Below are positions 79-14,535 of a stretch of 14,535 nt of DNA, piece by piece (the stretch's first letter is position 1; each line of letters starts with the position of its first letter). The stretch lies in the IMG/VR virus record IMGVR_UViG_2534681705_000018, positions 1-14,535 of that record; one strand, given 5' to 3'. The position numbers were made by a program, and so were the translations under genes. Under the pieces are notes generated by a model. The model was not told the DNA's origin, did not search any database, and was given only the letters and a program-made list of their open reading frames with translations. This DNA is from a virus (lineage: Duplodnaviria; Heunggongvirae; Uroviricota; Caudoviricetes).

Positions 79-318
79 TTTTAACTCCTCTGGATAAATT
101 AAATCACAAATTTTTGTATTATAAATAACCGCATAAGCCAAATTATTTGAGATTAATAAAACATCACCAACTTCAATATCAACAAGACTTCTGTAACATG
201 TTTTACTAAATCCAATTACAAAATGAATGGACCAATATAATGATTTTTTGTCTAACACTGGAGCGTTTCCGTATTGGCAGACTGTGACTTTATCTAACCA
301 AAGATTCAATTCCCCTGT

Positions 319-684: not shown

Positions 685-815
685 TAACTTTCATCCTTCT
701 GATCGTTTTCGAATTTGCTTTCATTTTCTTGCTCCTCATAAGGCTGATGTCGTTGTCCTTGTCGTTCATCTTGCTCAGTCAATACCCAACGTTGTGCTGT
801 AACTCATTATGAAAA

Positions 816-2426
816 CTATTTAATTCCCTCATCATTGATAAGGTTGGACATCTCTTTCAACATGAGAGTCATTGAAGCTTTCGACCAATTTAGCGGAATG
901 ATAGGGCTTGGCGCTTCATGCAAAGTTCCCGACTTGTGGATATAGTTATAGCTTTCGGGAAGTGCCATTTCAGGTACACTCCTGCCATTTGCACCAATCA
1001 TATTCTCGCCTGTTATTTGGGCCAATGATCTATTCATAAATTGCACTGAGTCATTCAAATACTCTTCCTTTCTTGATTCTTTATAAACAATTGCTGCTGA
1101 TTTTGCATACCATGAGTCAAAAAACCATTCTGCTTCTGTTGATGGAATGAAGCTCTTTTCTCTTTTCGCATGTGAATTTTGATCGGTATCGGTTTTAATA
1201 TCATTGAACCAAAAATTTGCCGACTGATAATTATCCTTCTCGTATCTTTTTATACCATACGGACCTGCTAGTTTTTTAACTATTTTTAGAACCTGCTCTT
1301 TTCTTCTGGTGTTTATCTTTGCAAGATTTGCAGGATAAATAACATTAAGTAAAGCCGCATCGGCTTCTCTGTAATGTTTATCTTTTTCCAGATAACCTGG
1401 GGATTCTCCCCCTAAATCAAGCTGTAACGTTATTCTTTCATAACCTTTATCTATGAGGTGGTTCAACCTCGTTGTTGAAAGAGGTTCATCCAGTTCATTG
1501 GCTTTAGCTTCGCGTAGTAAATCAGAGACAAAAACAGAGTCTTTCTTCGAGAGTAAGTTCGACAAACGTTCCAGTCCAGAGGTCACCAGTGCAACGGAAG
1601 ATGTGTTTAATCGGGCATCTTCTTCCCATGCTCCGGAATCTTCCATAACATAGAAATTGGCTTTATCCAGATAAGCAATCAGCAGCGCAACCGATTTTAA
1701 TCGGTCACCTTTTTGCCAATCTTCAGCGTTAATTGTATCAGTGTCGATTGCTTGTATAAGGAGATCAAGATAAAGACCTAACGCATCATTTTGTTTATGG
1801 TTCCACAGCTGCGGCTTGCCTTCTTCCTGCACATCTGCCATCACGGGGGAGTTGCTGTCAAATCGGATATGCACAACATTCATTTGCCCGGGAACTCCAT
1901 CCAGTCGTTTGGGGTTGCTAATGACGTCCTGCATTCGCTTAATCTGGTCGGGCGTAGACATATAATCCCACAGGGTGAGCAGAACCTTTTTTGCGGCTAC
2001 ACTATTTCCCTGATCTGATACTAATGCCATATAGCCCCATAAACTATCCCTCAGCCAGACAGCATCATAGTGGGTTTCTGCCGCTGTTTTGTCATCTTCG
2101 AAAGTAGAAGCAAGAATAAACGTTCCCCAGGGTTTCTCCGTCAACGTTAACTTTCGTGTGTTTTCTGTTAATGTTAGCAATCCTTGAATTTCGTCTTTGG
2201 TATAGTGGCTCTTTATTTCATTTTGTAATTTGGCTGAGTGAATCAAAAGACGATAATTAGGATACTTATCTGGATTTAACGATAAATAACTTTTATCTGT
2301 TGCTGCCCCCGTGGAATTAAGAATGTTAAATACAGATTCACTCGTCACTTCTGCCCCTGTCGCCTGGCATGTGCCGCACGAAAATATACCAGCGAGCAGA
2401 AGAGTTAATGCAGATTTCCCTTTCAT
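816..2426 (-). CDS. secreted glycoside hydrolase family 15 (glucoamylase-like) enzyme with N-terminal signal peptide
   Basis: ORF 816..2468; likely start at MKGKSALTLLLAGIFSCGTCQATG (ATG 2426; alternative ATG 2438). Matches recalled GH15 signatures: VWLRDSLWG (WxRDS), GKPQLWNHKQNDALG (GxPQ...D.AL) and SGAWEED (general-acid WEE). AT-rich gene unlike the rest of the window. Confidence 0.7.
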   Translation of the reverse strand: MKGKSALTLLLAGIFSCGTCQATGAEVTSESVFNILNSTGAATDKSYLSLNPDKYPNYRLLIHSAKLQNEIKSHYTKDEIQGLLTLTENTRKLTLTEKPWGTFILASTFEDDKTAAETHYDAVWLRDSLWGYMALVSDQGNSVAAKKVLLTLWDYMSTPDQIKRMQDVISNPKRLDGVPGQMNVVHIRFDSNSPVMADVQEEGKPQLWNHKQNDALGLYLDLLIQAIDTDTINAEDWQKGDRLKSVALLIAYLDKANFYVMEDSGAWEEDARLNTSSVALVTSGLERLSNLLSKKDSVFVSDLLREAKANELDEPLSTTRLNHLIDKGYERITLQLDLGGESPGYLEKDKHYREADAALLNVIYPANLAKINTRRKEQVLKIVKKLAGPYGIKRYEKDNYQSANFWFNDIKTDTDQNSHAKREKSFIPSTEAEWFFDSWYAKSAAIVYKESRKEEYLNDSVQFMNRSLAQITGENMIGANGRSVPEMALPESYNYIHKSGTLHEAPSPIIPLNWSKASMTLMLKEMSNLINDEGIK

Positions 2427-2734
2427 AAAATATTCCATCAATCGTTTGTTAAAAGCGTAGATAACCACTTATTTAACAACTTGAAAATAAGGTGTTTTAC
2501 CTGGGTTGTTACAAAAGGATTGCATTGCGTAAACGCTTTTTATTTACAACAAAATGGGGAAGTATTACGGCGATTGCGAAAAGTCTGAAGCGATTGAATT
2601 AAGATAATATAGAAAATCAGATACAGCAAAAATGGCAGATTGATCAGGTGAAGATAAATTGGAGCGGCGAAGGGAACAACACAACAAGCCACAAGACCAG
2701 TAATAAAGGCGCATTCGCGAGTTCTAAAATAAAT

Positions 2735-2758
2735 TCTATACACATTTCTATACACATT
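2735..2758. repeat. perfect tandem direct repeat TCTATACACATT x2
   Basis: Read directly at 2735-2746 and 2747-2758. Confidence 0.8.
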
Positions 2759-2770
2759 TATCACTCGCTT

Positions 2771-2850
2771 GGGGATTACACATCCCCTGTTAACCGTGAT
2801 CAAGCTGGTGGATGATCACGGATAAACCGATATGGGAATCCCCATATCGG
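2771..2850. promoter_or_regulatory. three consecutive perfect dyad symmetries: GGGGAT-N5-ATCCCC (2771-2787), CCGTGATCA-N10-TGATCACGG (2794-2821), CCGATATGGG-N4-CCCATATCGG (2827-2850)
   Basis: Inverted repeats read directly; non-coding; sits where composition changes from AT-rich cargo to element-like DNA. Confidence 0.6.
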
Positions 2851-2855
2851 CATCG

Positions 2856-2967
2856 CGTAGTTAATCGTAGTGGCTACCGTAGTAGCCTCCGTAGTTGAGT
2901 AGCAGGATGTAACCTGCCAGGAAGGAAATGATCGTGACTCGCCGTGACATGGCGTGATTAATCGTGA
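2856..2967. repeat. helically phased short direct repeats: CGTAGT x4 (2856, 2866, 2878, 2890) with embedded palindrome GGCTAC-cgta-GTAGCC, then CGTGA x4 at exact 10-bp spacing (2933, 2943, 2953, 2963)
   Basis: Read directly; the 10-12 bp phasing puts the motifs on one face of the helix, typical of multimeric protein-binding sites (integrase arm sites, TerS sites, iterons). Confidence 0.6.
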
Positions 2968-3000
2968 CACCAAACAAAAATCCTTACCCGTAGGCTTAAT

Positions 3001-3023
3001 GTAAGGCTTGGCTGTAGCCTTAC
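3001..3023. other. perfect 8-bp inverted repeat GTAAGGCT-N7-AGCCTTAC
   Basis: Read directly. Confidence 0.6.
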
Positions 3024-3035
3024 CGAACGCGCCGC

Positions 3036-3215
3036 TCACCGTCGCGGCCTGTCCGGTTTCCGCCACTGATACGGCCTCACATCATCATGCTGGTGGCGCT
3101 CCTGTTGCAGCACAACGGAAACAGGCGCTGAACACCTGTTAATTTTGCTTGCTGGTTGTTTGATTCCGGCAATGCTGCGGATCATCTCCAGCAAATCGGC
3201 TTCGGTGATGGTCAT
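3036..3215 (-). CDS. possible small ORF (59 aa, MTITEADLLEMIRSIAGIKQ...), unknown function
   Basis: ATG at 3215 with AAGGTG 7 nt upstream; stop at 3036-3038; not in the ORF track (under 60 aa); low support. Confidence 0.25.
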   Translation of the reverse strand: MTITEADLLEMIRSIAGIKQPASKINRCSAPVSVVLQQERHQHDDVRPYQWRKPDRPRR

Positions 3216-3245
3216 GATTTACACCTTAGGAAATCTTAGGGGGCT

Positions 3246-3518
3246 GGTTGACACTTTCCGGCTTAAGACCTTAATAAATCTTAATATCGTAGGTTGACAC
3301 ACTTGACACTTTTTCGGGAAAAACCTTAACAAAACTTAACCATCCCTGGCATTTCTAAGCATGGCAACTTGACACTTTTCGCTATTTTTTCGGCTTTTTG
3401 ACGTGGTAAATCTGGCGAAAGGCCAGTAATGGCGTGGCTTACAGCGAGGTTGACACTTTTTCGCGTTCAGAGTGTAAAGTGTCAACCTGGCAAGCTGCTC
3501 AACTTGACACTTTTTGAG
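3246..3518. repeat. array of six direct copies (one inverted) of about 14 bp, (G/C)TTGACACTTTT(T)CG
   Basis: TTGACAC at 3248, 3294, 3303, 3369, 3450, 3504 and inverted GTGTCAA at 3479; non-coding, directly 3' of the HTH gene at 3520-4047. Confidence 0.7.
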
Positions 3519-3519
3519 G

Positions 3520-4047
3520 TCATTGATGGCCTGATTTTTCCCACTCAGCCAGGGCGTTTAGTCCGGCTTCACTCCAGTTATCCAGCTCATCGGGACAATC
3601 ACCTGCAACATAGCAGAGCTCACAACGCAGCATACGAATTGCCAGCCTGGCATTTTCCCGAAAATCATACTGCTCAAAGTAATATTGCCCAGCATAATCC
3701 TCAAGGCAGATAGCACCATCATCAAGAAATTGCACTTCACAGCATAATTCCCCGGCTGCATCCTGCACACGCTGCTGTATGTCATCGTCCGTTACTGGTG
3801 CAGGGATTTTACCGTCTCTGGCCTTAACTGCTTTCCAGAACTCGCCCCACGTCATTTCCAGCGTTCTCTCTGGCCACATTTCAGAAACGGGGTTTTTTCC
3901 CTGTGCTGGTGGGCTGTTCCGCTGCTCTGTCGCTTCCACATCAATTTTTTTGCCAGACATGATCACTTCGCCTTTCTCGATCCAGTCGTAAACTGTCTGG
4001 CGGCTTACGCCTTTGTGTTTGGCATATTCTGCCTTGCTCATCAGCAT
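3520..4047 (-). CDS. HTH DNA-binding protein, 175 aa; N-terminus resembles lambda Nu1/terminase-small-subunit winged HTH; Cys-rich C-terminus; candidate packaging-redirecting or regulatory protein
   Basis: N-terminal KAEYAKHKGVSRQTVYDWIEKGE parallels recalled Nu1 KKQLADIFGASIRTIQNWQEQGMPV; C-terminal RCELCYVAGDC; ATG 4047 (or 4041) follows the upstream stop by 6 nt with GGGTGAG Shine-Dalgarno. Confidence 0.6.
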   Translation of the reverse strand: MLMSKAEYAKHKGVSRQTVYDWIEKGEVIMSGKKIDVEATEQRNSPPAQGKNPVSEMWPERTLEMTWGEFWKAVKARDGKIPAPVTDDDIQQRVQDAAGELCCEVQFLDDGAICLEDYAGQYYFEQYDFRENARLAIRMLRCELCYVAGDCPDELDNWSEAGLNALAEWEKSGHQ

Positions 4048-4053
4048 TATGAC

Positions 4054-4725
4054 TCACCCTTCTTTTTCCAGTTGAGCCAGCCGCCCGGATATTTCTTCCA
4101 GTTTTTCCAGGGCTGGCTTGCAGGCCGCATCAATAACATCCCGGACCATTCCGGCAAGCTGCTCTTCTGCTGTCGGCGTTGTTACTTCCACACCCGATGG
4201 TTTCCCTCCCTTATCCCATACACCCAGCGGTACGAGGGCAACGTGATCGATAAGAAATGGCGTACCCTCAATGACAAAATTGTCCTCGCCCATTACATCA
4301 GGAACTTCTGCCCCACCGGACGCACCACAAAACACAACCGACGGGCTGGTGGATACCTCCCCCCGGGCTTTCTGGATGTAATCGATGATTTCCTGCCCGT
4401 AAATCCGGCATACGCCCCACACCTCGTCATCGCGAATATACGGCAACATAACGGTGCCAATAATGCGCGACCGTTCGCCCACGTCTTCAATGGTTTTGCC
4501 TTCGGGATGGTCGATAATGACGGGTACTCCGGCGCAACGTTCCAGGAACTGCGGATTGAGATAAGTTTGCGGTGAACGCCAGACAAATTCTTTTTCTTCG
4601 GCGCGGTAGGCCATTCCGGTTCCTGTGATACGCAGGTTAACCAGCCACATGTTGGAGAACTGATAAGGCGACGGTAGCTGACCGTCCCGAATCTGCTTCG
4701 CCGCCTCAATTTCTGTTAAAAGCAT
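4054..4725 (-). CDS. hypothetical 223-aa protein with coiled-coil C-terminus
   Basis: ORF-track ORF; same operon and strand as neighbours; no motif recognised. Confidence 0.55.
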   Translation of the reverse strand: MLLTEIEAAKQIRDGQLPSPYQFSNMWLVNLRITGTGMAYRAEEKEFVWRSPQTYLNPQFLERCAGVPVIIDHPEGKTIEDVGERSRIIGTVMLPYIRDDEVWGVCRIYGQEIIDYIQKARGEVSTSPSVVFCGASGGAEVPDVMGEDNFVIEGTPFLIDHVALVPLGVWDKGGKPSGVEVTTPTAEEQLAGMVRDVIDAACKPALEKLEEISGRLAQLEKEG

Positions 4726-4789
4726 AATGTTATCCGGTTATAAGCAATAAGCCCCGCCAAATCCGGCAGGGCTGAACTCAGCACGTTTT

Positions 4790-5368
4790 TCATGCCCCCG
4801 CGAGGCTTGCAGTGTTAATTTTGACCAGGCGACGGGGAGGGATTTTGAAGGCGTTCAGCCAGACGTTCGGATCGCCCTGATATTCAGTAATACGACGACC
4901 AGCTTCATCCATTCTTACGGTTTTACCCAAATGGCCCGGCGTGTTTTCCACGGCCCACTGAGCACTTTCCTGAGCAGCCTTGTAAATCTGATCTTCCAGC
5001 ACCGCCAGCGTTGCAGAATCTGAAACGGAACGAATATCCACATCACTGAATTTTTTAGCCAGCTTCTGTGCGCCAATTAATGCACGCTTGCGGTAATCCA
5101 TCGACTTTTCACCAGCAAACGGGGCCGGAGCTCGACGGCCCATATTGCTGTATGCGGAATCCGCTTTAGCCTGGGCTTCTGCCAGTGAGGATTCATCTTC
5201 GACTGACGCGACGATGTTTTGATTAGCGTTATCCTCTTTTATGAAATCCTGTGCGGGGATCGCATTCAGAATTTCGATAATCTCCTGCGGAGTGCTGCCC
5301 TGCGACTCTGACAGAGCGTTAACCACCTCCATCAGTTTTAATCGCAAATCTTCTTTGCTTGCTGGCAT
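4790..5368 (-). CDS. hypothetical 192-aa protein
   Basis: ORF 4790..5377 opens on GTG; in-frame ATG at 5368 has a better Shine-Dalgarno (GAGAGGTGG). Confidence 0.55.
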   Translation of the reverse strand: MPASKEDLRLKLMEVVNALSESQGSTPQEIIEILNAIPAQDFIKEDNANQNIVASVEDESSLAEAQAKADSAYSNMGRRAPAPFAGEKSMDYRKRALIGAQKLAKKFSDVDIRSVSDSATLAVLEDQIYKAAQESAQWAVENTPGHLGKTVRMDEAGRRITEYQGDPNVWLNAFKIPPRRLVKINTASLAGA

Positions 5369-5407
5369 TTTTACCACCTCTCTTTTTTCACCAAAAAATC
5401 ACGACCA

Positions 5408-5587
5408 TCAGGCCGGACGTTCTACGGGATAAAGCGCCCGCTGCATTAAACGCCGGGCGACCTCATGAATGCTCGGAGCAATCCCCAGCGGAGAATTGCG
5501 GCGTTCCTCGTCCTGGATGCGCTGTAATGCTTCAATCTGATCACGAGCGAGTAAAACGGGTTTCACGCTGGCTTTTCTCATAGTCAT
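5408..5587 (-). CDS. small 59-aa protein (MTMRKASVKPVLLARDQIEALQRI...), possible small DNA-binding regulator
   Basis: ATG at 5587 with AGGAGA Shine-Dalgarno; first gene after the tandem terminators; assignment is tentative. Confidence 0.45.
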   Translation of the reverse strand: MTMRKASVKPVLLARDQIEALQRIQDEERRNSPLGIAPSIHEVARRLMQRALYPVERPA

Positions 5588-5605
5588 ATCTCCTGAACAA
5601 AACAA

Positions 5606-5700
5606 TGATTATGATTGCACAAACTGAAATGACGATCTACATCGTTGCAATTTATGAAACGATAACGCATGATGATCGCGTTCTTCCCATTGACTTCAAT
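5606..5700 (-). promoter_or_regulatory. promoter/operator region for the 5587->3520 operon with repeated ACGAT/ATCGT dyads and a CATAAT -10-like hexamer
   Basis: Between terminators and the first gene of the next operon; dyads GACGATctacATCGT and AACGC-N8-GCGTT read directly. Confidence 0.4.
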
Positions 5701-5704
5701 CACC

Positions 5705-5745
5705 TGAAAAACAAAGCCCGCAACACTTCTGGCTGCGGGCTTTTT
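5705..5745 (-). terminator. second, bidirectional intrinsic terminator
   Basis: 8-bp stem AGCCCGCA/TGCGGGCT (5715-5722, 5734-5741), 11-nt loop, T-runs on both sides. Confidence 0.6.
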
Positions 5746-5753
5746 ACTGGCAC

Positions 5754-5777
5754 AAAAAAGCCGGGAAAAATCCCGGC
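5754..5777 (-). terminator. Rho-independent terminator right after the PerC-like gene
   Basis: 7-bp GC stem GCCGGGA/TCCCGGC with 4-nt loop, followed on the minus strand by a 6-T run. Confidence 0.7.
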
Positions 5778-5782
5778 CTCCG

Positions 5783-6070
5783 TCACTGACTGCAATTTTT
5801 CGATCCAGGGTATTTCCTGAATGCCTTACCATTGGGCTGATGTAATCCCATCCCGGCATGTGCCCGGCTGATGGTTTCGCGCATCTCCCCGAAATTATCC
5901 TGCCGTGCTGGTGGGCGTGCTGCCTTGCGGATACATTCCGCGCGACGTTTTGCCGCCTGTTCCCGTGCCTTGTCATCATTCGCCAGCATGATGACCTCAG
6001 CCCACCGCGCCGCCGCTCTCCGGTACAGACCACGCGCTTCCAGTGCTTCCGCTTTGCTGTCGTGAATCAT
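5783..6070 (-). CDS. PerC/Pch-family transcriptional activator-like protein (95 aa)
   Basis: AEALEARGLYRRAAARWAEVIM matches the recalled PerC-family core (AEELE.KGLWRRAAARWLEVM); ATGA start/stop overlap with the upstream gene. Confidence 0.55.
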   Translation of the reverse strand: MIHDSKAEALEARGLYRRAAARWAEVIMLANDDKAREQAAKRRAECIRKAARPPARQDNFGEMRETISRAHAGMGLHQPNGKAFRKYPGSKNCSQ

Positions 6071-6609
6071 GCGCCTGTTTTCTCCCTGGCTGCCCGGCGC
6101 TGACGTTTGCGCTTCTCATTCAGCGCTACCAGCCGCGTTTCTGCGTCCTGTTGTTCCTGTGGTGTCACCTCGCCGCACGGCTGGCCTTTCAGGTCGTAGC
6201 GTACCCCACCAGCCATTAAGGCGCGGTAATAGCGCGGACACTGCGCATAAGATGCCAGCGTCGCACGTAATGCCCCTGGCCCGAATGCCAGCCCCCTGAC
6301 GGCGAGATCCTGCATCAGGTCGTCGAATATCCCCACCTTAAGCGGCTTCGGTGCTTCCCGGCTGAATAATTCAGGCCACAACTCAGTGAGGCGGTTAACG
6401 CGCCTGCGGTTTTTGCGCTGGCGCTTGGTCATATGCCGCCACGGTGTCGCCCCTGTGGGCTTCTGCTGCGCTTTCTGGTTACCGGGCATCACTTTATGCG
6501 CCGACGTGGTTTTATCCTGCTCCTGTGCCGCCTGCGTCGTTTTCTGCGGCGTGCCATAAATGCCTTTCGGTTTTCTGTTAATGGTCAGCTTAGTCATGCT
6601 TTGCCCCAT
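6067..6609 (-). CDS. ProQ/FinO-domain RNA-binding protein with a basic N-terminal extension
   Basis: LTELWPELFSREAPKPLKVGIFDDLMQDL ... YYRALMAGGVRYDLKGQPCGEVTPQEQQDAETRL parallels recalled ProQ N-terminal domain ([22 protein letters not shown] ... RVDLDGNPCGEL); likely true start ATG 6597. Confidence 0.65.
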   Translation of the reverse strand: MGQSMTKLTINRKPKGIYGTPQKTTQAAQEQDKTTSAHKVMPGNQKAQQKPTGATPWRHMTKRQRKNRRRVNRLTELWPELFSREAPKPLKVGIFDDLMQDLAVRGLAFGPGALRATLASYAQCPRYYRALMAGGVRYDLKGQPCGEVTPQEQQDAETRLVALNEKRKRQRRAAREKTGA

Positions 6610-6937
6610 CGTTTTTACTGATTATTTCATGCCCGGAACTTTCATCTACCGGATACCACGCAAATGATCCAGGTTCATCAGAAAGAATGAATTTTGTGTT
6701 TGGCAAATACATGCATTCGTAAAAACCATCTTCCTGATGATACGGTGCCATTCCATACTCACCAGTAAGAATCGGTAATATTTCAGAATAAATTTCTGAA
6801 TCACCAGAATAAAACACATCACAAATCGCCCATGCTGCAATCGGACTATACCAGTCGTTGCCATTATCATTCCTGAATTTTGCCCACCAACCCTGAACCG
6901 CTGGCGAAATATTTTTGGGTATAGCTTCAAGAAACAT
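6590..6937 (-). CDS. hypothetical 115-aa Trp/Tyr-rich protein, first gene of the ProQ/PerC operon
   Basis: ATG 6937 with strong AAGGGGG Shine-Dalgarno; 3' end overlaps ProQ-like start. Confidence 0.55.
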   Translation of the reverse strand: MFLEAIPKNISPAVQGWWAKFRNDNGNDWYSPIAAWAICDVFYSGDSEIYSEILPILTGEYGMAPYHQEDGFYECMYLPNTKFILSDEPGSFAWYPVDESSGHEIISKNDGAKHD

Positions 6938-6987
6938 ACAACCCCCTTTGCAACTCTATTTCTATAATTTCGTGATAAAAATTCCAA

Positions 6988-7290
6988 TTATTCACACTAT
7001 TCCATTTTGATTGTGAACAGTCGTGAATAGTTAGTGAACAGTTTTTTAATAACTGTTCACTATGTTTTTTAGTTTAAAATCATATGGTTATTTTGTTTCA
7101 GTGAACAGTTGAACAGTTACCCCCTATAGAATTTAATTTGCAGTGAAAATGATTCACTGTTACAAGTTACAATGCGTTTTAAAAGTTTTAGCCGAAACTG
7201 TTCACGGCGTTCATTTCGTCGATGAATCCAGTAATGACGCAGCTTTTAGAGGTGAACACTACTGTTCACCACTGTTCACCACTGTTCACT
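6988..7290. repeat. replication-origin-like iteron region: about 10 direct and inverted TGTTCAC(C) copies, an AT-rich spacer, and a perfect tandem ACTGTTCACC x3
   Basis: Direct copies at 7054, 7199, 7263, 7273, 7283; inverted at 7013, 7034, 7101, 7252; palindrome TAGTGAACAGTT/AACTGTTCACTA (7032-7062). TGTTCACC is the P4 alpha-protein type I iteron as I recall; location just 3' of the primase gene. Confidence 0.65.
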
Positions 7291-9058
7291 TTTCATGGAT
7301 TTTTGGCACAGCGGGTAACCATTCATTAGCACTGTCAGCCAGCTCCATGTTGTAGCGCATTCCGACATTGGTCTTTGCCTTCTTATACTCAGCCCCATAT
7401 TCTTTCATCACTTTTGGGAAATCTTTGCCAAAATTAGTTAGATTTAATGGCTTATCGAAACCATAAGCATCCATATATGCAAGATATGCATGGTAAAGAT
7501 AAATTCGAGGGGCTCTTGGATATATATTCAGGTTTCCCATGAACATTCCTACAGCTTCACCAAGTTCGACAATATGGTTACAAAAAGCATATAGCGGATC
7601 AGTATGGCGTTTTACTTCCATTGCTTCTTCACCATCACGTTGCTCGAGCAGTAATGTTCTTGCTTTTTCGGGATCTGAAAAATTTACCAACAGCCTACGG
7701 ACTATTACCGGAATTTCCGCTGCAATTTTTTTGGGTAAACATGTGTCCTTGTTTTCTTCCGCTATCGGATTATTGAACTGAAAAATAACCCTACGGCGTG
7801 AAATACCTCCCGCTCTTTCTGTAAAAACCATCGGTTTATTATTTGTTATCAAAACAACTGAGCGTAAGACAGTGGTGTATCTTTTTTCATATTTCGGGTT
7901 AATTTGCAGAGGATCCCCACCTGTTATAGCTTTAATACCATTACCTTCACCAAAATATTTAGGTTGGTCCGGTAAAATAATCAGACTTTTACCAACTAGT
8001 TGCTCACGTCCACCAGCATCATCTAACGCTTTCATATCACTGCCTGCGGTGTTCTGCTCACCCGCCAACATTCTGGCAATTTGAGTAAACATACTTTTAC
8101 CACTTCCACCTTCGCCAGTTGCTTCAATGAATAATTGCCAGTCGTAGCGATTAGCCAAAACCATAAACAGAGCAGCACATATCCGCTTCATCTTTGATGA
8201 ATCGTATCCTGCTGCATGTGACAGCCAACGATGAAAATGGGGCGCATGGTCATGAATATTTTCACCAGGCGCAGGTGGCGTATAATAAATTCCATTATGC
8301 GAAGTGATCCAGTGCTCTGGTGAATGAGGTAAAAATCTACCACTTGTTATGTCATAAACTCCATTTTCAAAAGGTATTATGGTGTCACTCTGTTCTCTCA
8401 TTACGGGTACAGATATTTTTAAAGCATCAACCGCATTACTAATTGCCCGCTTACTGAAATTTGTCTTGTTTTTTTCGTAAATTGATACCATTTTACGACT
8501 CAACTCCATATCAGATATTTTTTCCCACACTCCAGAACAGTATGCATAAGCAAAATTGTTACCAGGGTGAACAGCTATTTCCTCAAAGCATTCAGCCAAA
8601 AGTGAAGCTCGCTCGTTATCCGCCATTCTGGAAAGAGAGATTTTGTGTTTTTTCTCAGTCCTTCCTGACAGAATATCCCCGCGCTCTGCCTGTTCGCGGA
8701 TCCGTTGCAGGTAATCGCGCCAGTTCTCCGGTTCCCGGTCGGTGATGCCTTTGTATAATTTCGCCTCCTGTACGCCAGCCAGCGCCAGCTTTTCAGCGAT
8801 AGCATTGATCTGGATTGGTTCGATCTCCCCCGCGAGATAGACACGCGCAAAGCGGCGTTTCTCGTCAATAATGCGGATATTCGCCAGGTCTGCCAGTTGC
8901 TTTGGCCCCAGGTAAACAGGTGGTACGTTATCGCCGTGTTTTCGTCCTTCGCTTTCAATCCAGTGTTGAGCATGGGAGTAAGCGTCCGTCCCGGCAAAAA
9001 TGATTACCTCGGTGAATTTATCCTTCGGCTGATATTTTAAATTCGGTGCGTTTTTCAC
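7286..9058 (-). CDS. P4-family primase / D5-like SF3 helicase replication protein (590 aa)
   Basis: Walker A GEGGSGKS in mid-protein; overall organisation of phage/plasmid primase family; GTG start at 9058 overlaps upstream stop (GTGA). Confidence 0.8.
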   Translation of the reverse strand: MKNAPNLKYQPKDKFTEVIIFAGTDAYSHAQHWIESEGRKHGDNVPPVYLGPKQLADLANIRIIDEKRRFARVYLAGEIEPIQINAIAEKLALAGVQEAKLYKGITDREPENWRDYLQRIREQAERGDILSGRTEKKHKISLSRMADNERASLLAECFEEIAVHPGNNFAYAYCSGVWEKISDMELSRKMVSIYEKNKTNFSKRAISNAVDALKISVPVMREQSDTIIPFENGVYDITSGRFLPHSPEHWITSHNGIYYTPPAPGENIHDHAPHFHRWLSHAAGYDSSKMKRICAALFMVLANRYDWQLFIEATGEGGSGKSMFTQIARMLAGEQNTAGSDMKALDDAGGREQLVGKSLIILPDQPKYFGEGNGIKAITGGDPLQINPKYEKRYTTVLRSVVLITNNKPMVFTERAGGISRRRVIFQFNNPIAEENKDTCLPKKIAAEIPVIVRRLLVNFSDPEKARTLLLEQRDGEEAMEVKRHTDPLYAFCNHIVELGEAVGMFMGNLNIYPRAPRIYLYHAYLAYMDAYGFDKPLNLTNFGKDFPKVMKEYGAEYKKAKTNVGMRYNMELADSANEWLPAVPKIHEK

Positions 9059-9345
9059 TTCTTACCTCCCGCAACCAACATTGCCCGGATTTTTTTAATA
9101 TTCGTGGCTGCACGTCTCGCCACCGCCTGTTGTTTGTTTTCCACCAGAATAAAATCACGCTCAAACTGACGGCGCGGCATTACGCAGTCATATTCGTAAG
9201 CCTCACGGCGGTAGGTGATATTGCCTGGCGTAACGTGACGAATAACCACTCGTCCCCCACGTCTGGTGTCGCGGTAAATATCTCCGTGTCTGATTTCAGG
9301 CCGAGCGGGGCCGCTGGCAGTAAAGCCAGAATTTTTCTTTTTCAT
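9055..9345 (-). CDS. hypothetical 96-aa basic protein, coupled to the primase gene
   Basis: ATG 9345 with AGGAAA upstream; stop overlaps primase start. Confidence 0.5.
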   Translation of the reverse strand: MKKKNSGFTASGPARPEIRHGDIYRDTRRGGRVVIRHVTPGNITYRREAYEYDCVMPRRQFERDFILVENKQQAVARRAATNIKKIRAMLVAGGKK

Positions 9346-9349
9346 GGTT

Positions 9350-9550
9350 TTATTTTCCTGTCAGCAGTTCCGGTTTTATTTCCGCACGAATACAGAGTTC
9401 AGAAAAAAATTCAGGAGAACCAACAATCTCATTACTTTTCAGTCGGCATTGTGATTTCACTTTTCCTTTATCCAGGTAAACCAGTATGCGTCCGGTGAAA
9501 TCATCTGGCGCACTCAGGGTAATTGTCATTGTTGCTTGCTGATTATCCAT
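9350..9550 (-). CDS. small 66-aa protein with one copy of an FTGxxLVxxxxGxV motif; paralog of the gene at 9543-9908
   Basis: PDDFTGRILVYLDKGKV; start overlaps upstream stop by 8 nt. Confidence 0.5.
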   Translation of the reverse strand: MDNQQATMTITLSAPDDFTGRILVYLDKGKVKSQCRLKSNEIVGSPEFFSELCIRAEIKPELLTGK

Positions 9551-9908
9551 GATTCACCCCCTGAATAACCTGATAACCGCAACTGGTCAGCAATTCGATA
9601 AATTCCGGCAATGTGCCGAAACAGTAATCATCACGCAGACGTTCGCGGGATACTTCAACGCCGTTTTCGTAGTGACTCACCATGCGTCCGGTAAAATGCA
9701 GATCATCATCGTGATGGCACGTTAACGGCTTAATCAGTCGCGCACGTTCTGCCAGTTCCAGCAATGCTTCAACGCTTCCGGCAATTGCACCATCCGGCAG
9801 GTTGTAATTACGCACTATGCGCCCGTTCTCCACATGGACCAGTAGCTGCCCGGTAAATTTCTCGTCAAACTGAATGCGGTTAAGGTCGGTAAGTGACAGG
9901 TTAATCAT
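9543..9908 (-). CDS. 121-aa protein carrying two tandem copies of the same small domain
   Basis: FDEKFTGQLLVHVENGRIV and LHFTGRMVSHYENGVEV; ATG 9908 overlaps upstream stop. Confidence 0.55.
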   Translation of the reverse strand: MINLSLTDLNRIQFDEKFTGQLLVHVENGRIVRNYNLPDGAIAGSVEALLELAERARLIKPLTCHHDDDLHFTGRMVSHYENGVEVSRERLRDDYCFGTLPEFIELLTSCGYQVIQGVNHG

Positions 9909-10104
9909 GGCGTACCTCCTGACGAATACGGGCGGCGAATACCATCACGCAGCCATCAGGAGATTGCTGGCGTGCTTCCTGTTCGCTGGTGGCCTCGATG
10001 TGAATCACGCGCGGTTGTGCCGTGCTCAGAGCGATAAAACGCCAGATGTATTTATTCAGGTTGTGCGAGTCCCGCCCTTGCGGGTGTGTGGTATGATTTC
10101 TCAT
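9901..10104 (-). CDS. small 67-aa protein, first gene of the leftward operon; tentatively Icd/Kil-like
   Basis: ATG 10104 with GAGGT Shine-Dalgarno; IWRFIALSTAQ...VMVFAARIRQEV resembles my recollection of Icd-like proteins (unverified); in frame with the C-terminus of the 402-aa track ORF. Confidence 0.4.
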   Translation of the reverse strand: MRNHTTHPQGRDSHNLNKYIWRFIALSTAQPRVIHIEATSEQEARQQSPDGCVMVFAARIRQEVRHD

Positions 10105-10297
10105 AGCTACCTCGATAATCTTGCTATCGTTGGTGGTTAGAAGCTCTGCGAGTGGTAACGACACTTGCGGGGCTTTGCCTTTAAGGTGCAAGTCACCTTT
10201 GAGGGTTATGCTACTTTTAGGTGACTTGCACTTCAAGCCTTTTTTTATTTTTTTTTCTACGTATACTGAACGCCACCTAACAGTAAGGAGGCCAGTA
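10105..10297. promoter_or_regulatory. divergent promoter/operator region with 13-bp inverted repeat AGGTGCAAGTCACCT (10184-10198) / AGGTGACTTGCAC (10219-10231) and a T-rich tract (10241-10257)
   Basis: Read directly; lies between the leftward operon and a rightward gene with AAGGAGG Shine-Dalgarno; candidate -35/-10 (TTGAAG-N17-TAGCAT) on the minus strand overlaps the repeat. Confidence 0.55.
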
Positions 10298-10477
10298 ATG
10301 CCAACGGGTACAACCAACAACAAATCACAACAAAAAACGGCTAGAATCCCTCTAGAAGTTTTAAGCGAAATGAATTTGGTCAAAGAGGAAAACGAAACAG
10401 ACGCGCAGTTTATCGTTACAGCCATGCGTGGCGAGATCAAACGCCGCCAGCGCCGCAAGGCCAAAGAACAGGAGTAA
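10298..10477 (+). CDS. small 59-aa basic protein, possibly ribbon-helix-helix-like; candidate element repressor
   Basis: Near-consensus Shine-Dalgarno AAGGAGG 6 nt before ATG 10298; strand-helix-helix pattern (ARIPLEV / LSEMNLVKEEN / AQFIVTAMRGEIKRR); only clear plus-strand gene in the element. Confidence 0.5.
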   Translation: MPTGTTNNKSQQKTARIPLEVLSEMNLVKEENETDAQFIVTAMRGEIKRRQRRKAKEQE

Positions 10478-10534
10478 CCATCACCAGCGCCGTGGTGTGA
10501 GGAACTACGGTGCATCGTTTTACAGGGCAGCGCC

Positions 10535-10714
10535 ATGACCAACAAAGAATCAACCAAAACACCATCACCAACTCGTAAGAGACGACGCAAAAATATAGCG
10601 CATGAACATGAATCAGAAAGATTCGCACCTTGTTCGTTTGCTCTTGAGAAATTCCTTAAAGAGCACAGGAAAAAGCTCTCGTTGCAAACCTTGGAACGAA
10701 CCAAATCTGACTGA
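10535..10714 (+). CDS. possible 59-aa Lys/Arg-rich ORF downstream of the RHH-like gene
   Basis: ATG 10535, weak Shine-Dalgarno; followed by a plus-strand terminator; not in ORF track. Confidence 0.3.
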   Translation: MTNKESTKTPSPTRKRRRKNIAHEHESERFAPCSFALEKFLKEHRKKLSLQTLERTKSD

Positions 10715-11109
10715 TCACATTGCCCACCAGCCGCAAATGTGGCATTGTTGGTGATGCGTTCAAGTATGTAGCTTTTCCACTGGCGGCTCTCTGCGGTCGC
10801 CTTTGTTTTATCCAGAACGAAATCAGACATCAGATTGATCAGCACCTGGCGACCTGACAAAATCGCATCAGTCGCGCCACCAGCAAAATTTTTTGCTTTC
10901 CGGACAGCGTGGCCAACGATATTTTGCAGCAAAATATTCTGCATTTCTGGCGTGCTGTGGCGACGGTGATCAGCGCCTTCACATTGAACGAACTTGTCGC
11001 TAAAATTCACCCACATAGCAAACATCGCGGTGCTGTAGGTAATTCGTTCACAAAGGCGCTCCGGCAACGGGGCGCTTTCTCTTTTTGTAACGGTCAGAGC
11101 GTTACACAT
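10715..11109 (-). CDS. N-terminal part of the 402-aa track ORF (9901..11109); plausible gene of unknown function whose true 3' end is unresolved
   Basis: ATG 11109 overlaps the AntA stop (ATGTGTAA); first ~130 residues protein-like, but the middle of the 402-aa frame looks non-coding and is antisense to the plus-strand module. Confidence 0.3.
10782..10809 (+). terminator. candidate Rho-independent terminator for the rightward transcript
   Basis: GGCGGC-tctctgc-GGTCGCC stem-loop followed by TTTGTTTT. Confidence 0.4.
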
Positions 11110-11950
11110 GGCTGTTTTCCTCCATGCGACGGGCTAACCAACGCTGCGAAAGACGAATTAATTCAGCCTTCCGCTGGTGGTAGTCCTGGCCTAACTCAAT
11201 CAGCGTGATATTGCTCTGCTCAAGGTAAGAAAGGTGCTCAAGCTGCAACGTGCTCATGTGGTCGCGTGGTTCGCCTGTAATGCCGTTCGCCAGTGCCCAC
11301 TGTTTTGCAGTCATGCCACCCAGCACGATACGCGCCAGCATGTTCGCTTCCGTGGTGTAGTGGTGCTGGAGTGTGTTTTTACCCAGTTCAGCCCGGTACG
11401 CCTCCAGCGCGGCACACATTGGCTTAAAGTAGCTGGCAACTGTGATACGGGCTTTCAGTTCCCGGCGTAACGCTGCGGAACGCACTGGCGCTACCTTGTG
11501 TAGCTCCTCCTCGCATTTGATAAAGTACTGGCGAACGGCGCGGCCCTGTTCGGTACGTTCGACCATCGCCAGTTCTTTCGCCATGTTCGTGGAGATCAAA
11601 TAGTCTTCACTGCGACGATCACCGCCGCGCTTTGTTGTCCAATCAAAATCAAACTGTTCAATATTTACACTTTGGTTCCCCCGTTTCGGGGAATCAAAGT
11701 ACAAATTTTCTACAACTTCAAAATCCACGCCATTTTTAAATCCGTACTCATCAATACGTCCTTTAATCCAGGTAGTGAAATCACGGCCTACCCCGAGCGC
11801 CTTATGCAACGCTCTGGCGCTAACAATATTGGTTTCACGCCCGCCAATAACGCCGGAAATAACCGGGATAATTTCGCCAAAATTTTGCAGATTCTGGTTT
11901 TCAGGCCGAACGAAGCCCTGCCCCTGTACGGGCGTTTTTCGCAGTTTCAT
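11102..11950 (-). CDS. phage antirepressor, AntA/AntB-type N-terminal domain (282 aa)
   Basis: IPVISGVIGGRETNIVSARALHKALGVGRDFTTWIKGRIDEYGF matches recalled AntA domain pattern; AGGAG Shine-Dalgarno before ATG 11950. Confidence 0.7.
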   Translation of the reverse strand: MKLRKTPVQGQGFVRPENQNLQNFGEIIPVISGVIGGRETNIVSARALHKALGVGRDFTTWIKGRIDEYGFKNGVDFEVVENLYFDSPKRGNQSVNIEQFDFDWTTKRGGDRRSEDYLISTNMAKELAMVERTEQGRAVRQYFIKCEEELHKVAPVRSAALRRELKARITVASYFKPMCAALEAYRAELGKNTLQHHYTTEANMLARIVLGGMTAKQWALANGITGEPRDHMSTLQLEHLSYLEQSNITLIELGQDYHQRKAELIRLSQRWLARRMEENSHV

Positions 11951-12028
11951 AAAAACTCCTGCTATCGAATTAAGTTACTTTTATTTGCTGGTGGATAGCT
12001 GGGGGCTTCTGGCCCCGTAGCCATTTAA

Positions 12029-12226
12029 TCAGGTAGCTGTTCCGCGTGATTCAGCAATACGCTGATTAATCCACTCGTCAATTTCACTCTCAACGAAAGC
12101 AATCGCTCGCGAGCCAATTTTAACTGATGCAGGAAATTTACCTTGCCCCATAAGGCGATAAATCCATGCCTTGCTATATCCAGTTCTACGCTGAACTTCC
12201 GTTAAACGAATAAGCGTATTTGACAT
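12029..12226 (-). CDS. alpA: AlpA/Vis-family phage transcriptional regulator or excisionase-like HTH protein (65 aa)
   Basis: IRLTEVQRRTGYSKAWIYRLMGQGKFPASVKIGSRAIAFVESEIDEWI is the typical AlpA-family winged HTH; GAGGT Shine-Dalgarno; family-level assignment only. Confidence 0.8.
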   Translation of the reverse strand: MSNTLIRLTEVQRRTGYSKAWIYRLMGQGKFPASVKIGSRAIAFVESEIDEWINQRIAESRGTAT

Positions 12227-12294
12227 ATATTTACCTCATAACGTCTACTCAATTTGACGAGGTAATCATGGCACAGAAATAACGAATATTTTCA

Positions 12295-12444
12295 TACCCT
12301 CAGGCCTAATGGTAATCGGGAATATTTTTACCCTAAGGGTAATAGTAAAATTGATGGGAAAGCATACAAAAATACCCTAAGGGTGAGGTCTGATTACCCT
12401 TAGGGTGAGACGCGAACAAAACATGAGATACCACTAGGGTAAGG
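12295..12444. promoter_or_regulatory. array of five copies of palindromic motif TACCCT(A/T)AGGGT(A/G) immediately upstream of alpA
   Basis: Copies at 12295 (degenerate), 12328-12343, 12373-12385, 12394-12410, 12429-12444; each an inverted repeat TTACCC-N3-GGGTAA. Confidence 0.7.
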
Positions 12445-12446
12445 CT

Positions 12447-13193
12447 TCATCGTTTGATAGGACAGGCGACAAGCTCAATAGATGCGGCCTGTCGGGAGGT
12501 AAAACCTCGTTTTTCAAGCTCAGTAGTAATCGCGCCCTGGTTTCCCCTGGTGGCGCGCTCATTTTCCGGATCGTAATTGGCCCACTCTCTGTTTCTAATC
12601 TCGATAGCCAGATACAATGGGTCATCATCTCTGTATTTATTTAATAGAATTGGACGTTCGCTTTCGAGTTTGCGGATTTGCTCTTTAAGTGAAGAAATTT
12701 CCGCAAGTAACACTTCAATATTCTGTTCATCATCCAGAAACTCATTATCAACCACATCAGAAGTTGGTAGAGTTATTTCACTTAATGGTAAAAATAAATC
12801 AATGCCTATTTTCTCTGCAAATTCTTTAAGTTCTGCACGACGAAACCCATGCTTATCAAAAAGGCTTGCCGACCATCTTACATCACAATTTTGAAAAGGT
12901 GCGAATAATGCTATAGGCACACTATTTCTTTCACGAATAACTTCCAGGAGGTCTGTTAAAGTAGGGGCACTATTATATTGATTGGAAAGATCGACATATG
13001 TTGATTCAATAGTACCGGCAATACCTTGCTTAACCCATTCAGGAAGTTCAATCGCACATTCTTTCAAGTAAAGAAAATCTGCAATCTGTGAATAACTAAC
13101 ATGCGGTTGATGTAATTGAATACGAGTTATCAACTCCCTCAGGCTAATAAACTCCCACTCCCTTGCTTTAAGCACTTCGGCAATATCAATCAT
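12447..13193 (-). CDS. hypothetical 248-aa protein between integrase and alpA, coiled-coil near C-terminus
   Basis: Track ORF 12447..13274 opens on GTG; ATG 13193 has GAGGTG Shine-Dalgarno 7 nt upstream; no motif recognised. Confidence 0.55.
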   Translation of the reverse strand: MIDIAEVLKAREWEFISLRELITRIQLHQPHVSYSQIADFLYLKECAIELPEWVKQGIAGTIESTYVDLSNQYNSAPTLTDLLEVIRERNSVPIALFAPFQNCDVRWSASLFDKHGFRRAELKEFAEKIGIDLFLPLSEITLPTSDVVDNEFLDDEQNIEVLLAEISSLKEQIRKLESERPILLNKYRDDDPLYLAIEIRNREWANYDPENERATRGNQGAITTELEKRGFTSRQAASIELVACPIKR

Positions 13194-13320
13194 ACGCACA
13201 CCTCGGCGTCCTCTGTAGTGGTGGCTGTGCCAGCCCGCAGAGGTGTACGGGTTTTCAGGAGCGACCCTAGACACAGCCTTTTCTTAATCGCTCAAAGTCT
13301 ACTACTGTATACTCAACCAG

Positions 13321-14535
13321 TCACCCGCATTTTCCGAACTCACCATGCACCACATTTCCGCCATGCTCGAGCGAATCCATATAGTCGGCATACCACTGGA
13401 GCATCTCCCGGCGACCATCCAGATATTGCGCATGGTTGTATGTGCCACGAATTGAGTTTTTATCGACGTGTGCGAGCTGTGTCTCTATCCACGCGGTGTT
13501 ATAGCCCTGCTCATGCAAAATGGTGCTCATGGTGTGCCGGAATCCATGACCAGTAACGCGCCCGGCATAGCCGATACGACGAATGAGCACATTCATCGCC
13601 ATTTCACTCATTGGCTTACTGTGGTGAATACGACCGGGGAAAATAAACTGATACTGGCCTGTCATGTTTTTTAACTGCTCCAGTATTTTTATCGCCTGTT
13701 CTGGTAATGGCACACAATGCGGACGGCGCATCTTCATTCGTTCTTTAGGCACTTCCCACAAACGATTATCAAAATCGATCTCCAGCCATTCTGCCTGCCG
13801 TAATTCCCCGGGTCTGACACCTGTCAGAATTAATAGCCGCATTGCCAGTTTGACGATCTGGCTTCCGGTGTACGTATTAAAAACGCGGAAAAATTCCGGC
13901 AGTTCGTCGGCTTTCAAATAGGCGTAATGCTCTTTTTTATGTGGAGCAAATGCGCTCACCAGGTCAGGGGCTGGATTATATTCGGCGCGTCCGGTGATGA
14001 TTGCGTACCGGAACACCTCGCCGCATCGCTGGCGAACCTTACGCAATTTTTCAGTCGCACCACGGTCATTAAGACGGGAAAGAACCGCCAGCAATTCCAT
14101 CGGCTTAATTTCTGCGATCGGCCTACCGCCAATGTACGGAAAAACATCTTTTTCAAACGTCTCGATCATTTCCTCGGCGTATGACGATGACCACCTGTCG
14201 ATCCGCTTTTCGTACCATTCGCGAGCAATACCCTCAAAAGTATTGCCAAATTTGCTCGCCTGTTCTCGCTTTTGGGCTTTTCTGGCCTCACTTGGATTTA
14301 TACCACCAGCAAGAAGCCTTTTAGCCTCATCCCTTGCCGCCCTGGCATCAGACAGAGACACATCAGGGTATACCCCCAACGACAACATTTTGGGCTTTCC
14401 TGCAAACCTGTAGCGCAGTCGCCACCCTTTCGAACCGTTCGGCTCAATGAGCAACGAAAGCCCGTTACCGTCATTGAGTGTATAAGCCTTTTCTTTCGGC
14501 TTCGCGCGCCTGATGGCAAGGTCTGAAAGCAGCAT
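13321..14535 (-). CDS. int: P4-type tyrosine integrase (site-specific recombinase), 404 aa, start at or just beyond the right edge
   Basis: N-terminal arm-binding-like region (LSDLAIRRAKPKEKAYTLNDGNGLSLLIEPNGSKGWRLRYRF); C-terminal catalytic boxes HGFRHT and RGTYNHAQY (tyrosine nucleophile). Confidence 0.9.
   Translation of the reverse strand: MLLSDLAIRRAKPKEKAYTLNDGNGLSLLIEPNGSKGWRLRYRFAGKPKMLSLGVYPDVSLSDARAARDEAKRLLAGGINPSEARKAQKREQASKFGNTFEGIAREWYEKRIDRWSSSYAEEMIETFEKDVFPYIGGRPIAEIKPMELLAVLSRLNDRGATEKLRKVRQRCGEVFRYAIITGRAEYNPAPDLVSAFAPHKKEHYAYLKADELPEFFRVFNTYTGSQIVKLAMRLLILTGVRPGELRQAEWLEIDFDNRLWEVPKERMKMRRPHCVPLPEQAIKILEQLKNMTGQYQFIFPGRIHHSKPMSEMAMNVLIRRIGYAGRVTGHGFRHTMSTILHEQGYNTAWIETQLAHVDKNSIRGTYNHAQYLDGRREMLQWYADYMDSLEHGGNVVHGEFGKCG

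Follow-up and report, generated by a model that had tools for sequence, protein, structure and literature searches.

Can an open reading frame (ORF) of 402 codons be one gene when its middle runs antisense to other genes and its end is a smaller gene with a start of its own? The question is raised by ORF402, a minus-strand frame in a stretch of 14,535 nucleotides (the window: positions 1 to 14,535 of IMG/VR virus record IMGVR_UViG_2534681705_000018), which by its gene content is DNA of an Escherichia coli satellite island of the phage-inducible chromosomal island (PICI) or P4-like kind. An original prediction, made from the letters alone, held that the frame cannot be one gene. It offered two explanations: an N-terminal gene that lost its stop, through fusion or pseudogenisation after a repressor module inserted, or a frame that is unusually long and overlapping. 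We find the locus more regular than this prediction supposed. The open frame is conserved in relatives as one frame with a nested gene, not as a broken gene, and the data back the second of the two explanations. We consider it likely that ORF402 is the island's counterpart of the nested eta/kil genes of P4, with translation keeping transcription running into the replication genes.

ORF402 stays open for 1209 bp, as had been reported, with zero internal stops. It contains two plus-strand terminators, two antisense genes, a divergent promoter/operator region and an Icd-like gene. Its coding parts are arranged as follows:

9901-11109, minus strand: the 402-codon frame (ORF402, 402 aa), ATG to TAA, from the ORF reading.
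11102-11123, minus strand: start region of ORF402, with GGAGG at 11123-11119, 9 nt ahead of the ATG at 11109-11107, which overlaps the AntA stop TAA at 11104-11102 (ATGTGTAA).
9901-10104, minus strand: nested Icd/Kil-like gene of 67 aa, with its own Shine-Dalgarno (SD) sequence, GAGG at 10113-10110, 5 nt ahead of the ATG at 10104 and in frame with the ATG at 11109.
10298-10477, plus strand: gene for a YlcI/YnfO-type small DNA-binding protein of 59 aa, a candidate repressor (NCBIfam YlcI_YnfO_N, NF041551, 60.5 bits against a cut-off of 30), with the SD sequence AAGGAGG at 10285-10291.
10535-10714, plus strand: second gene, 59 aa, with the motif ERFAPCAF and no family match.

Residues 354-397 of ORF402 match the 48-position NCBIfam model phage_ICD_like (NF033153) with 67.7 bits against a cut-off of 25, and the original claim of an Icd-like C-terminus with its own SD sequence is borne out. 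The internal SD sequence and ATG are found in all 39 representatives of the sequence clusters described below that were open to examination. At the other end, the start is coupled at the sequence level to the preceding gene of the alpA operon, antA, through the overlapping ATG and stop and the GGAGG, also as predicted. The stop codon of ORF402 (TAA, 9903-9901) in turn overlaps the ATG (9908-9906) of the next ORF (ATGATTAA). Both plus-strand genes are wholly antisense within ORF402; the first, with its family match and strong SD sequence, is the well-supported gene to which the middle of the frame had been said to be antisense, and homologues of the second are hypothetical proteins in the NCBI (PGAP) annotation.

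Homologues of ORF402 called as proteins are 402-503 aa long, 57-100% identical at 100% coverage, and differ through large in-frame block replacements that make them mosaics. E. coli records include exact matches to the 402-aa product, and full-length proteins of the same or almost the same sequence come from many independent contigs, 74 for one of them. Among variants of 402-435 aa, one is seen on 599 contigs. Because called proteins are a biased sample, we drew loci afresh by the Icd C-terminus alone. This sample consists of 80 metagenome loci chosen solely by the 68-residue Icd C-terminus, with C-termini at least 91% identical to that of the window. Stop counts use 71 usable loci (metagenome loci together with the window and the related loci L001-L003), grouped into 39 clusters at 90% identity.

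Of the 71 loci, 80% lack any stop in the Icd frame over the 750 nt that precede the Icd core (mean 0.34 stops), against means of 15.2 and 16.4 in the other two frames of the Icd strand and 6.4 to 12.6 in the three frames of the opposite strand. The window itself has 0 stops in the Icd frame and 4 to 18 in the other five. We discarded base composition as an explanation for the openness, since the other two same-strand frames carry 15-16 stops per 250 codons, or one stop per 14-20 codons in the relatives. A stop-free run of 399-1623 nt precedes the internal Icd ATG in 39 of 39 clusters, which between them hold many unrelated repressor-type genes and second genes. Over the 39 representatives, 13,890 nt of open run are covered by plus-strand genes and 19,266 nt lie outside them. 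These uncovered stretches, which include the A/T-rich promoter region, contain 0 in-frame stops against 434 and 497 in the other two frames.

The spacing between fixed anchors and the Icd ATG provided a test that is independent of ORF calling. Between the terminator anchor AAAACAAAGGC and the Icd ATG there are 28 distinct spacings (432-1044 nt), 26 of which are multiples of 3 (binomial P = 7e-11); measured from a Chi anchor, the figure is 22 of 24 (P = 4e-9). The two spacing exceptions are loci whose frame ends ahead of the anchor. The original prediction had named homologues with the same full-length frame as evidence against its view that ORF402 cannot be one gene. Homologues do retain that frame (402-503 aa, 39/39 clusters, 26/28 spacings), and the view therefore fails on the terms it had set beforehand.

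The same data bear on whether the frame arose by a recent accident, in which an N-terminal gene lost its stop and was fused to Icd when the repressor module inserted, leaving a pseudogene or chimera, or in which a sequencing frameshift is to blame. The Cys/Ser/Arg-rich, low-quality composition of the middle of ORF402 and the mosaic among its relatives would suit such an accident. Against it stand the (near-)identical 402-aa proteins on many independent contigs, the openness of the frame in all 39 diverged clusters with their many different repressor cassettes, and an N-terminal part that bears no sign of a past constrained protein-coding gene. An induced particle genome, vB_KppS-Ant, supplies a 36%-identical relative whose frame is open too and built alike, enclosing a repressor-type gene in antisense; this was the one distant relative returned when ORF402 was searched against a phage collection by tblastn. 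The recent accident, and with it the proposed fusion or pseudogenisation, is contradicted by these data and scarcely credible, as long frames are not confined to one clone. A scan of species-representative genomes with the N-terminal 130 aa returned a single locus, in Escherichia ruysiae, and our comparison is therefore based on E. coli genomes and metagenome contigs.

The beginning of the long frame takes several forms. In the class of relatives to which we refer as class A, GGAGG lies 9 nt ahead of an ATG that overlaps the antA stop, and this start context is identical in all members. Many other variants begin just past the first terminator, with a stop, a G-rich SD sequence and an ATG at the motif M-x-H-KTKAT. 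In six further relatives (L020, L021, L030, L048, L049 and L065), long ORFs of 430-471 aa open with an AntA or Bro-N N-terminus (Bro-N 54.3 bits in L021), so that a Bro-type gene and the read-through frame are one ORF there, as in P4 eta. At the far end, the ATG of the downstream ORF overlaps the stop of the long frame in most variants.

Long N-terminal extensions are the rule in the Icd-like family at large. Among the best 150 of 168 Icd-like matches (representatives of 50%-identity clusters), the domain is at the extreme C-terminus in 124, 90 of which have at least 100 aa upstream of it; the median extension is 215 aa. Annotation is inconsistent on this point: PGAP gives L001 and L002 a short Icd-like coding sequence, a YlcI/YnfO gene and a hypothetical protein and assigns no gene to some 390 bp. 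Other records name the whole frame of 402-503 aa a host cell division inhibitor Icd-like protein.

If the frame is kept, what is it kept for? As a measure of constraint we counted variable sites at codon positions 1/2/3, where an excess at third positions indicates constraint on the protein. The last 65 codons, those of Icd, have 18/19/33 variable sites and evolve like a protein. No periodicity is seen in the 60 nt upstream of the Icd ATG (9/12/11) or in the first 270 nt of the ORF402 frame (25/23/19). Both plus-strand genes are under coding constraint, with 32/27/48 variable sites in the YlcI-type gene and 37/33/46 in the second gene. Across the repressor gene, the ratio of nonsynonymous to synonymous changes (pN/pS) stands at 0.46 for the plus frame, 0.65 for that of the long ORF and 1.0-1.4 for the other two antisense frames, and the plus-strand YlcI-type gene is thus the frame with the stronger purifying selection. 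The long-ORF value is intermediate because the third codon positions of both strands coincide; in every variant, both plus-strand genes lie in the antisense register where this is so.

In the N-terminal part of the long frame, whole blocks have been exchanged for unrelated sequence with the frame retained. Class-A variants have a single variable site in the first 60 nt of the long ORF, a stretch that includes a terminator hairpin. The lack of periodicity, together with block swaps that retain the frame, means that upstream of 10104 the frame is conserved as a frame and not as a protein. We conclude that protein-level constraint is confined to the Icd part and that selection is for translatability, not for a product: ahead of the Icd start, nothing but freedom from stops is kept. 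The coding conflict that had been suspected is real insofar as the middle and N-terminal parts are not protein-like and the plus-strand gene is under stronger purifying selection; the frame itself is not broken but conserved.

A different view would be that the 402-aa polypeptide is a functional protein of several parts, active in its N-terminal and middle regions as well, so that both strands are dual-coding for function. The long frame and its start signals are conserved, a real Bro-N domain opens the frame in some variants, P4 Eta is grouped with Bro-network proteins in PMC10111431, and the long-ORF pN/pS over the repressor gene, 0.65, is below 1. That value is expected from the shared third positions, however, and the plus frame is lower at 0.46. 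Outside the plus-strand genes there is no third-position excess (25/23/19 and 9/12/11), and a block can be replaced by unrelated sequence as long as the frame survives. Profile scans with Pfam and NCBIfam gave no family match upstream of residue 354, and ORF402 is without any Pfam match. AlphaFold2 assigned a per-residue confidence (pLDDT) below 50 to residues 1-354 and of 53-67 solely to the Icd domain, though this run, with a shallow alignment of 13 sequences and a mean pLDDT of 31, is of low confidence and adds weak support only. We regard a functional multi-part protein as unlikely. The more specific idea that the peptide antisense to each repressor acts on that repressor strikes us as highly improbable.

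Selection for an open frame, and not for a product, is also visible in how the frame accommodates regulatory elements:

10208-10236, minus strand: predicted early sigma-70 promoter, with the -35 box TTGAAG (10236-10231), a 17-nt spacer and the -10 box TAGCAT (10213-10208), by consensus match only.
10181-10236, no strand: inverted repeat and candidate operator, with 18-nt arms at 10181-10198 and 10219-10236 that are 89% complementary and bracket the -10 box.
10240-10256: T-tract, which like the inverted repeat lies between the Icd and YlcI starts.
10782-10811, plus strand: hairpin and, after it, TTTGTTTTAT, which together form an intrinsic terminator that ends the plus-strand operon (folding energy -12.0 kcal/mol, or -7.4 when the minus strand is folded).
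11053-11088, plus strand: second terminator, an 11-pair hairpin followed by CTCTTTTTGT (-22.3 kcal/mol on the plus strand against -12.6 on the minus strand), 20-56 nt inside the 5' end of ORF402.
10487-10513, plus strand: terminator-like hairpin between the two plus-strand genes, from the terminator scan.
10724-10731, minus strand: Chi site GCTGGTGG, which encodes the conserved AAGGQ codons of the long ORF.
10877-10884, minus strand: further Chi site inside ORF402.
9985-9992, plus strand: further Chi site inside ORF402.

The T-tract and inverted repeat are where the original prediction had placed them, in the middle of the frame. A sigma-70-like consensus match equivalent to the predicted early promoter precedes the Icd ATG by 132-146 nt in 36 of the 39 representatives and matches the consensus at 9 or more of 12 positions in 30. 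The -35 box, TTGAC or TTGAA, contains a TGA, which 0 of 78 loci place in frame. Where the -10 box is in frame, it begins with TAT or TAC (9/9); where it is out of frame, it begins with TAA or TAG in 28 of 30 cases. The regulatory boxes are therefore phased so as to avoid in-frame stops. Relatives with other repressor types have different repeats at the same promoter-flanking place, the pattern that would be expected of pairs of operator and repressor specificity.

The hairpins at 10782-10811 and 11053-11088 fold far better on the plus strand, which identifies them as plus-strand terminators. The former has compensatory stem changes among variants and, read on the minus strand, forms the KTKAT codons of the long ORF. 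Both should keep transcription of the repressor operon out of antA and be much less of an obstacle to transcription of the minus strand. Between 9500 and 12400, no terminator-like site was found on the minus strand, and all five sites are on the plus strand.

Other structures in this region deserve mention for their own sake. On the minus strand, the stretch from the predicted early promoter to the Icd SD sequence contains a predicted leader hairpin (10141-10176), which may be an attenuator or processing site of the early transcript; its counterparts in variants have differing stems that still pair (for example CCCGG...CCGGG, CGCCCCGCA...TGCAGGGCG and CCCCG...CGGGG). The best promoter-like match of the region (TTCACA, 17 nt, TAAAAT, 10 of 12) is on the plus strand at 10978-11006 and aims into the 11053-11088 terminator. 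It would yield an RNA of about 75 nt antisense to ORF402 codons 8-32. The block that contains this promoter-like match is replaced in other variants. Finally, a GTG-started frame of 99 codons on the plus strand (10909-11208) overlaps, in antisense, the last part of antA and the beginning of ORF402. It is open in L001 and L002 as well, which may reflect no more than shared ancestry.

Chi sites are unusually frequent. There are 13 exact copies of GCTGGTGG in the window, eight on the plus strand and five on the minus strand, against a dinucleotide-shuffle expectation of 0.37; 0 of 200 shuffles reach 13. The density over all fetched related loci is 1.11 per kb, and P4 has none. The Chi site that encodes AAGGQ adjoins the junctions of the cassette swaps.

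How might such a frame work? If the internal early promoter is active, only the last 67 codons would be translated from its transcript, from their own SD sequence, giving the Icd/Kil-like protein along with the downstream genes. The inverted repeat that brackets the promoter would be the likely site at which the divergent YlcI/YnfO-type protein represses it. Transcription from the alpA-antA operon would have a different outcome. Ribosomes leaving antA would re-initiate at the overlapping ATG and translate all 402 codons, and in doing so would cover about 1 kb of RNA that is otherwise untranslated and antisense to the repressor operon. By analogy with P4, these ribosomes would escort RNA polymerase over the cassette and prevent a premature end through Rho-dependent termination or polarity, whether or not the repressor is active. 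The repressor operon would be dampened as well, by convergent transcription. We assume a ribbon-helix-helix fold for the YlcI/YnfO-type protein; a sequence search of the PDB with the 59-aa protein returned no structure, and tblastn of the same protein against the phage collection gave no match.

We further propose, tentatively and with a confidence that stops just short of an even call, that in this group of satellites a complete repressor operon, made up of promoter, operators, one or two genes and terminators, is housed in a translated frame of the opposite strand, with ribosomes reading both strands in the register of shared third codon positions. The frame would be a pure "ribosome track" that carries helper-induced transcription from alpA across the immunity cassette to the replication genes, and on it cassettes of differing specificity would have been swapped many times with the track kept stop-free. 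If this is true, the cassette would be the missing repressor/immunity module of Gram-negative PICIs, masked in annotation as a long Icd-like protein.

Several observations weigh against reading ORF402 as a translated, eta-like frame. The early promoter of the window is weak, matching 8 of 12 consensus positions, and was not picked up by the promoter scan. The minus-strand RNA has no marked C-rich, G-poor (rut-like) stretch, the C/G ratio peaking at 1.2-1.44 around 10220-9980. No match to the P4 immunity RNAs C4 or isrK is present in the window, even at E values up to 10 across 9850-11200. In three relatives (L018, L040 and L047) no ATG lies close to where the open run begins, and in about 4% of loci the run is short, at 92-146 codons. 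Additionally, the openness of the strand antisense to the plus-strand genes is only mildly surprising: synonymous shuffling gives a chance of 0.06-1.0 per gene. With E. coli codon usage the product over 23 distinct proteins is 10^-9.7, and under permutation of each gene's own codons the chance is about 0.5 per gene. The shuffling is only moderately significant, and the non-overlapped parts of the frame and the anchor distances are the stronger evidence. Lastly, ynfO of E. coli K-12 (L086 757-990, Qin prophage), which lies outside such elements, is also stop-free in the antisense register that shares third positions, with 3 and 7 stops in the other two antisense registers. Since just one site is at risk in this gene, it is uninformative as a control, but it still weakens the argument for the parts where coding sequences overlap. 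The amino-acid make-up of YlcI/YnfO proteins may predispose the family to such overlap.

These last points lead to the view that the frame is open yet untranslated upstream of Icd, with stops avoided for plus-strand or DNA-level reasons and gene callers simply choosing the most distant ATG for Icd. Tyr, His and Gln are scarce in the plus-strand proteins, and therefore few antisense stops are possible, which agrees with a chance of openness that rises to 1.0 for some genes; K-12 ynfO is equally open; and PGAP annotates close relatives inconsistently, with a short or a long Icd. Over half of each open run, however, is outside the plus-strand genes and still has no in-frame stop, and 3-5 antisense stops are seen in plus-strand ORFs located past the point where the long frame ends. 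A frame that is open for plus-strand or DNA-level reasons also sits poorly with anchor spacings that are multiples of 3 in 26 of 28 cases, with promoter boxes phased against in-frame TGA, TAA and TAG, and with conserved SD and ATG signals at the 5' end. An open but untranslated frame is, in our judgment, quite improbable, and we prefer the reading in which ORF402 is a translated counterpart of eta.

The setting of ORF402 matches the order of zones in Gram-negative PICIs: integrase and AlpA, then a Bro-type gene, then primase, then late or packaging genes. The neighboring features of the window, in the order in which the minus strand is read, are:

13321-14535, minus strand: integrase-sized ORF, by size and position; homologous loci have a tyrosine integrase at this place.
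13210-13277, minus strand: int-alpA RNA (Rfam, 47 bits against a gathering score of 35.8).
12029-12226, minus strand: AlpA (Pfam Phage_AlpA, 69.4 bits).
11102-11950, minus strand: AntA/AntB-family gene (Pfam AntA, 84.3 bits), directly ahead of the long ORF and in the same operon.
9543-9908, minus strand: small ORF of 121 aa (ORF121), from the ORF reading, its start coupled to the ORF402 stop.
9350-9550, minus strand: small ORF, from the ORF reading.
9055-9345, minus strand: DUF4222 gene, by family match.
7286-9058, minus strand: D5-type primase, by family match.
6067-6609, minus strand: ProQ/FinO-family RNA-binding protein (Pfam ProQ, 84.1 bits).

The int-alpA RNA sits between the integrase and an ORF at 12447-13274, and is also present in the relatives L003 and L041. 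From ORF121 down to the primase, the minus-strand genes are tightly packed. Beyond the primase, profile matches identify a DUF2213 gene and the ProQ/FinO gene; an RNA-binding protein of this family may matter for an element with overlapping sense and antisense transcripts.

The locus is of wider interest as a widely replicated case of an ORF that is conserved for its translatability instead of its product and that overlaps real genes of the opposite strand. Such frames test the rules by which gene callers and searches for overlapping genes operate. Pipelines alternate for one and the same locus between a 400-500-aa "Icd-like protein" and a short Icd with YlcI and a hypothetical protein, and each version hides half of what is there. 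The locus also offers a candidate repressor/operator cassette for Gram-negative PICIs and suggests a specific way, open to experiment, in which helper-induced expression of alpA could lead to replication.

Among known systems, the immI operons of P1 and P7 resemble the window in that an Icd-family protein shares an operon with an antirepressor-type gene. In P1 the order is c4, icd, ant, with a short icd; the order here is antA, a long ORF ending in Icd, then replication genes, and ORF402 is without a C4 RNA. Translation of icd is said to be needed for transcription into the downstream gene, with translational repression leading to Rho-dependent termination. The long antisense overlapping gene pairs of bacteria offer another parallel: here, too, two conserved frames lie on opposite strands, with about 360 nt of plus-strand coding sequence and coinciding third positions. 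In contrast to those pairs, one of the two partners here seems to be selected only for freedom from stops, whatever amino acids it encodes.

A similar build is described in PMC10111431 for the "Bro zone" of Gram-negative PICIs, with an integrase and AlpA followed by a Bro/AntA gene and then a primase. According to PMC6092414, helper phages switch on alpA in E. coli PICIs, and overexpression of AlpA triggers pri-dependent replication; this AlpA-driven induction fits an induction route from alpA through the long frame. The same source leaves unclear whether Gram-negative PICIs have a global repressor. Unlike what we find in the window, these two papers describe immunity RNAs in the Bro zone, and the passages searched in them make no mention of a repressor-type cassette antisense within an Icd-ending frame. 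In PMC10111431, "Icd" mostly denotes the isocitrate dehydrogenase integration site. Recent satellite surveys (PMC13612085) treat Icd, AntA and YlcI/YnfO simply as accessory genes.

The closest parallel is eta/kil of P4. The P4 eta ORF (NC_001609 8168-8812, minus strand) matches phage_ICD_like with 73.1 bits at residues 161-208, which correspond to Kil. Ahead of this Icd-like C-terminus, it matches Phage_ASH (Pfam PF10554) with 82.2 bits. It also contains C4 (the CI RNA) and isrK, which we detected with Rfam as a positive control for our RNA search. PMC10111431, in its summary of Forti et al. 1999 (J Bacteriol 181:5225), places a constitutive promoter inside eta, describes Kil as a truncated Eta and states that translating Eta prevents premature termination. 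According to this summary, too, translation of full-length Eta occurs only from an upstream late promoter and is coupled to the alpA homologue.

In both elements, a long ORF has as its last 65 or so codons a separately initiated Kil/Icd-like protein (73.1 bits in P4, 67.7 here). In both, the ORF starts upstream of an early promoter, which in ORF402 is a predicted one, and encloses an immunity element, which in ORF402 is a candidate. Both starts are coupled to the preceding gene of the alpA operon, and both ORFs lie between the integration genes and the primase. The two differ in that the coupling partner in P4 is the alpA homologue itself, whereas a full AntA gene stands between alpA and the long ORF in the window. 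ORF402 is also about twice as long as eta. While eta holds immunity RNAs on its own strand (C4/CI RNA and isrK/seqA) together with Phage_ASH, ORF402 has neither and houses instead two genes that form an entire operon of the opposite strand, including promoter, candidate operators and terminators. An RNA immunity element of the P4/P1 type (C4 or isrK) inside ORF402 was rejected, as none appeared at lax thresholds with a method that was positive on P4. The immunity element here would then be the divergently transcribed repressor cassette of the opposite strand, a candidate, and not a CI RNA. One relative, L077, has a C4 (CI-type) RNA (73.1 bits at 2855-2942, plus strand) just downstream of the Icd stop and outside the long frame, so that the two kinds of immunity element may occur together in some islands. 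Judged by profile matches and gene order, the C-terminus and overall build of ORF402 are homologous to eta/kil, and the device seems to be a general one in P4-like elements and PICIs.

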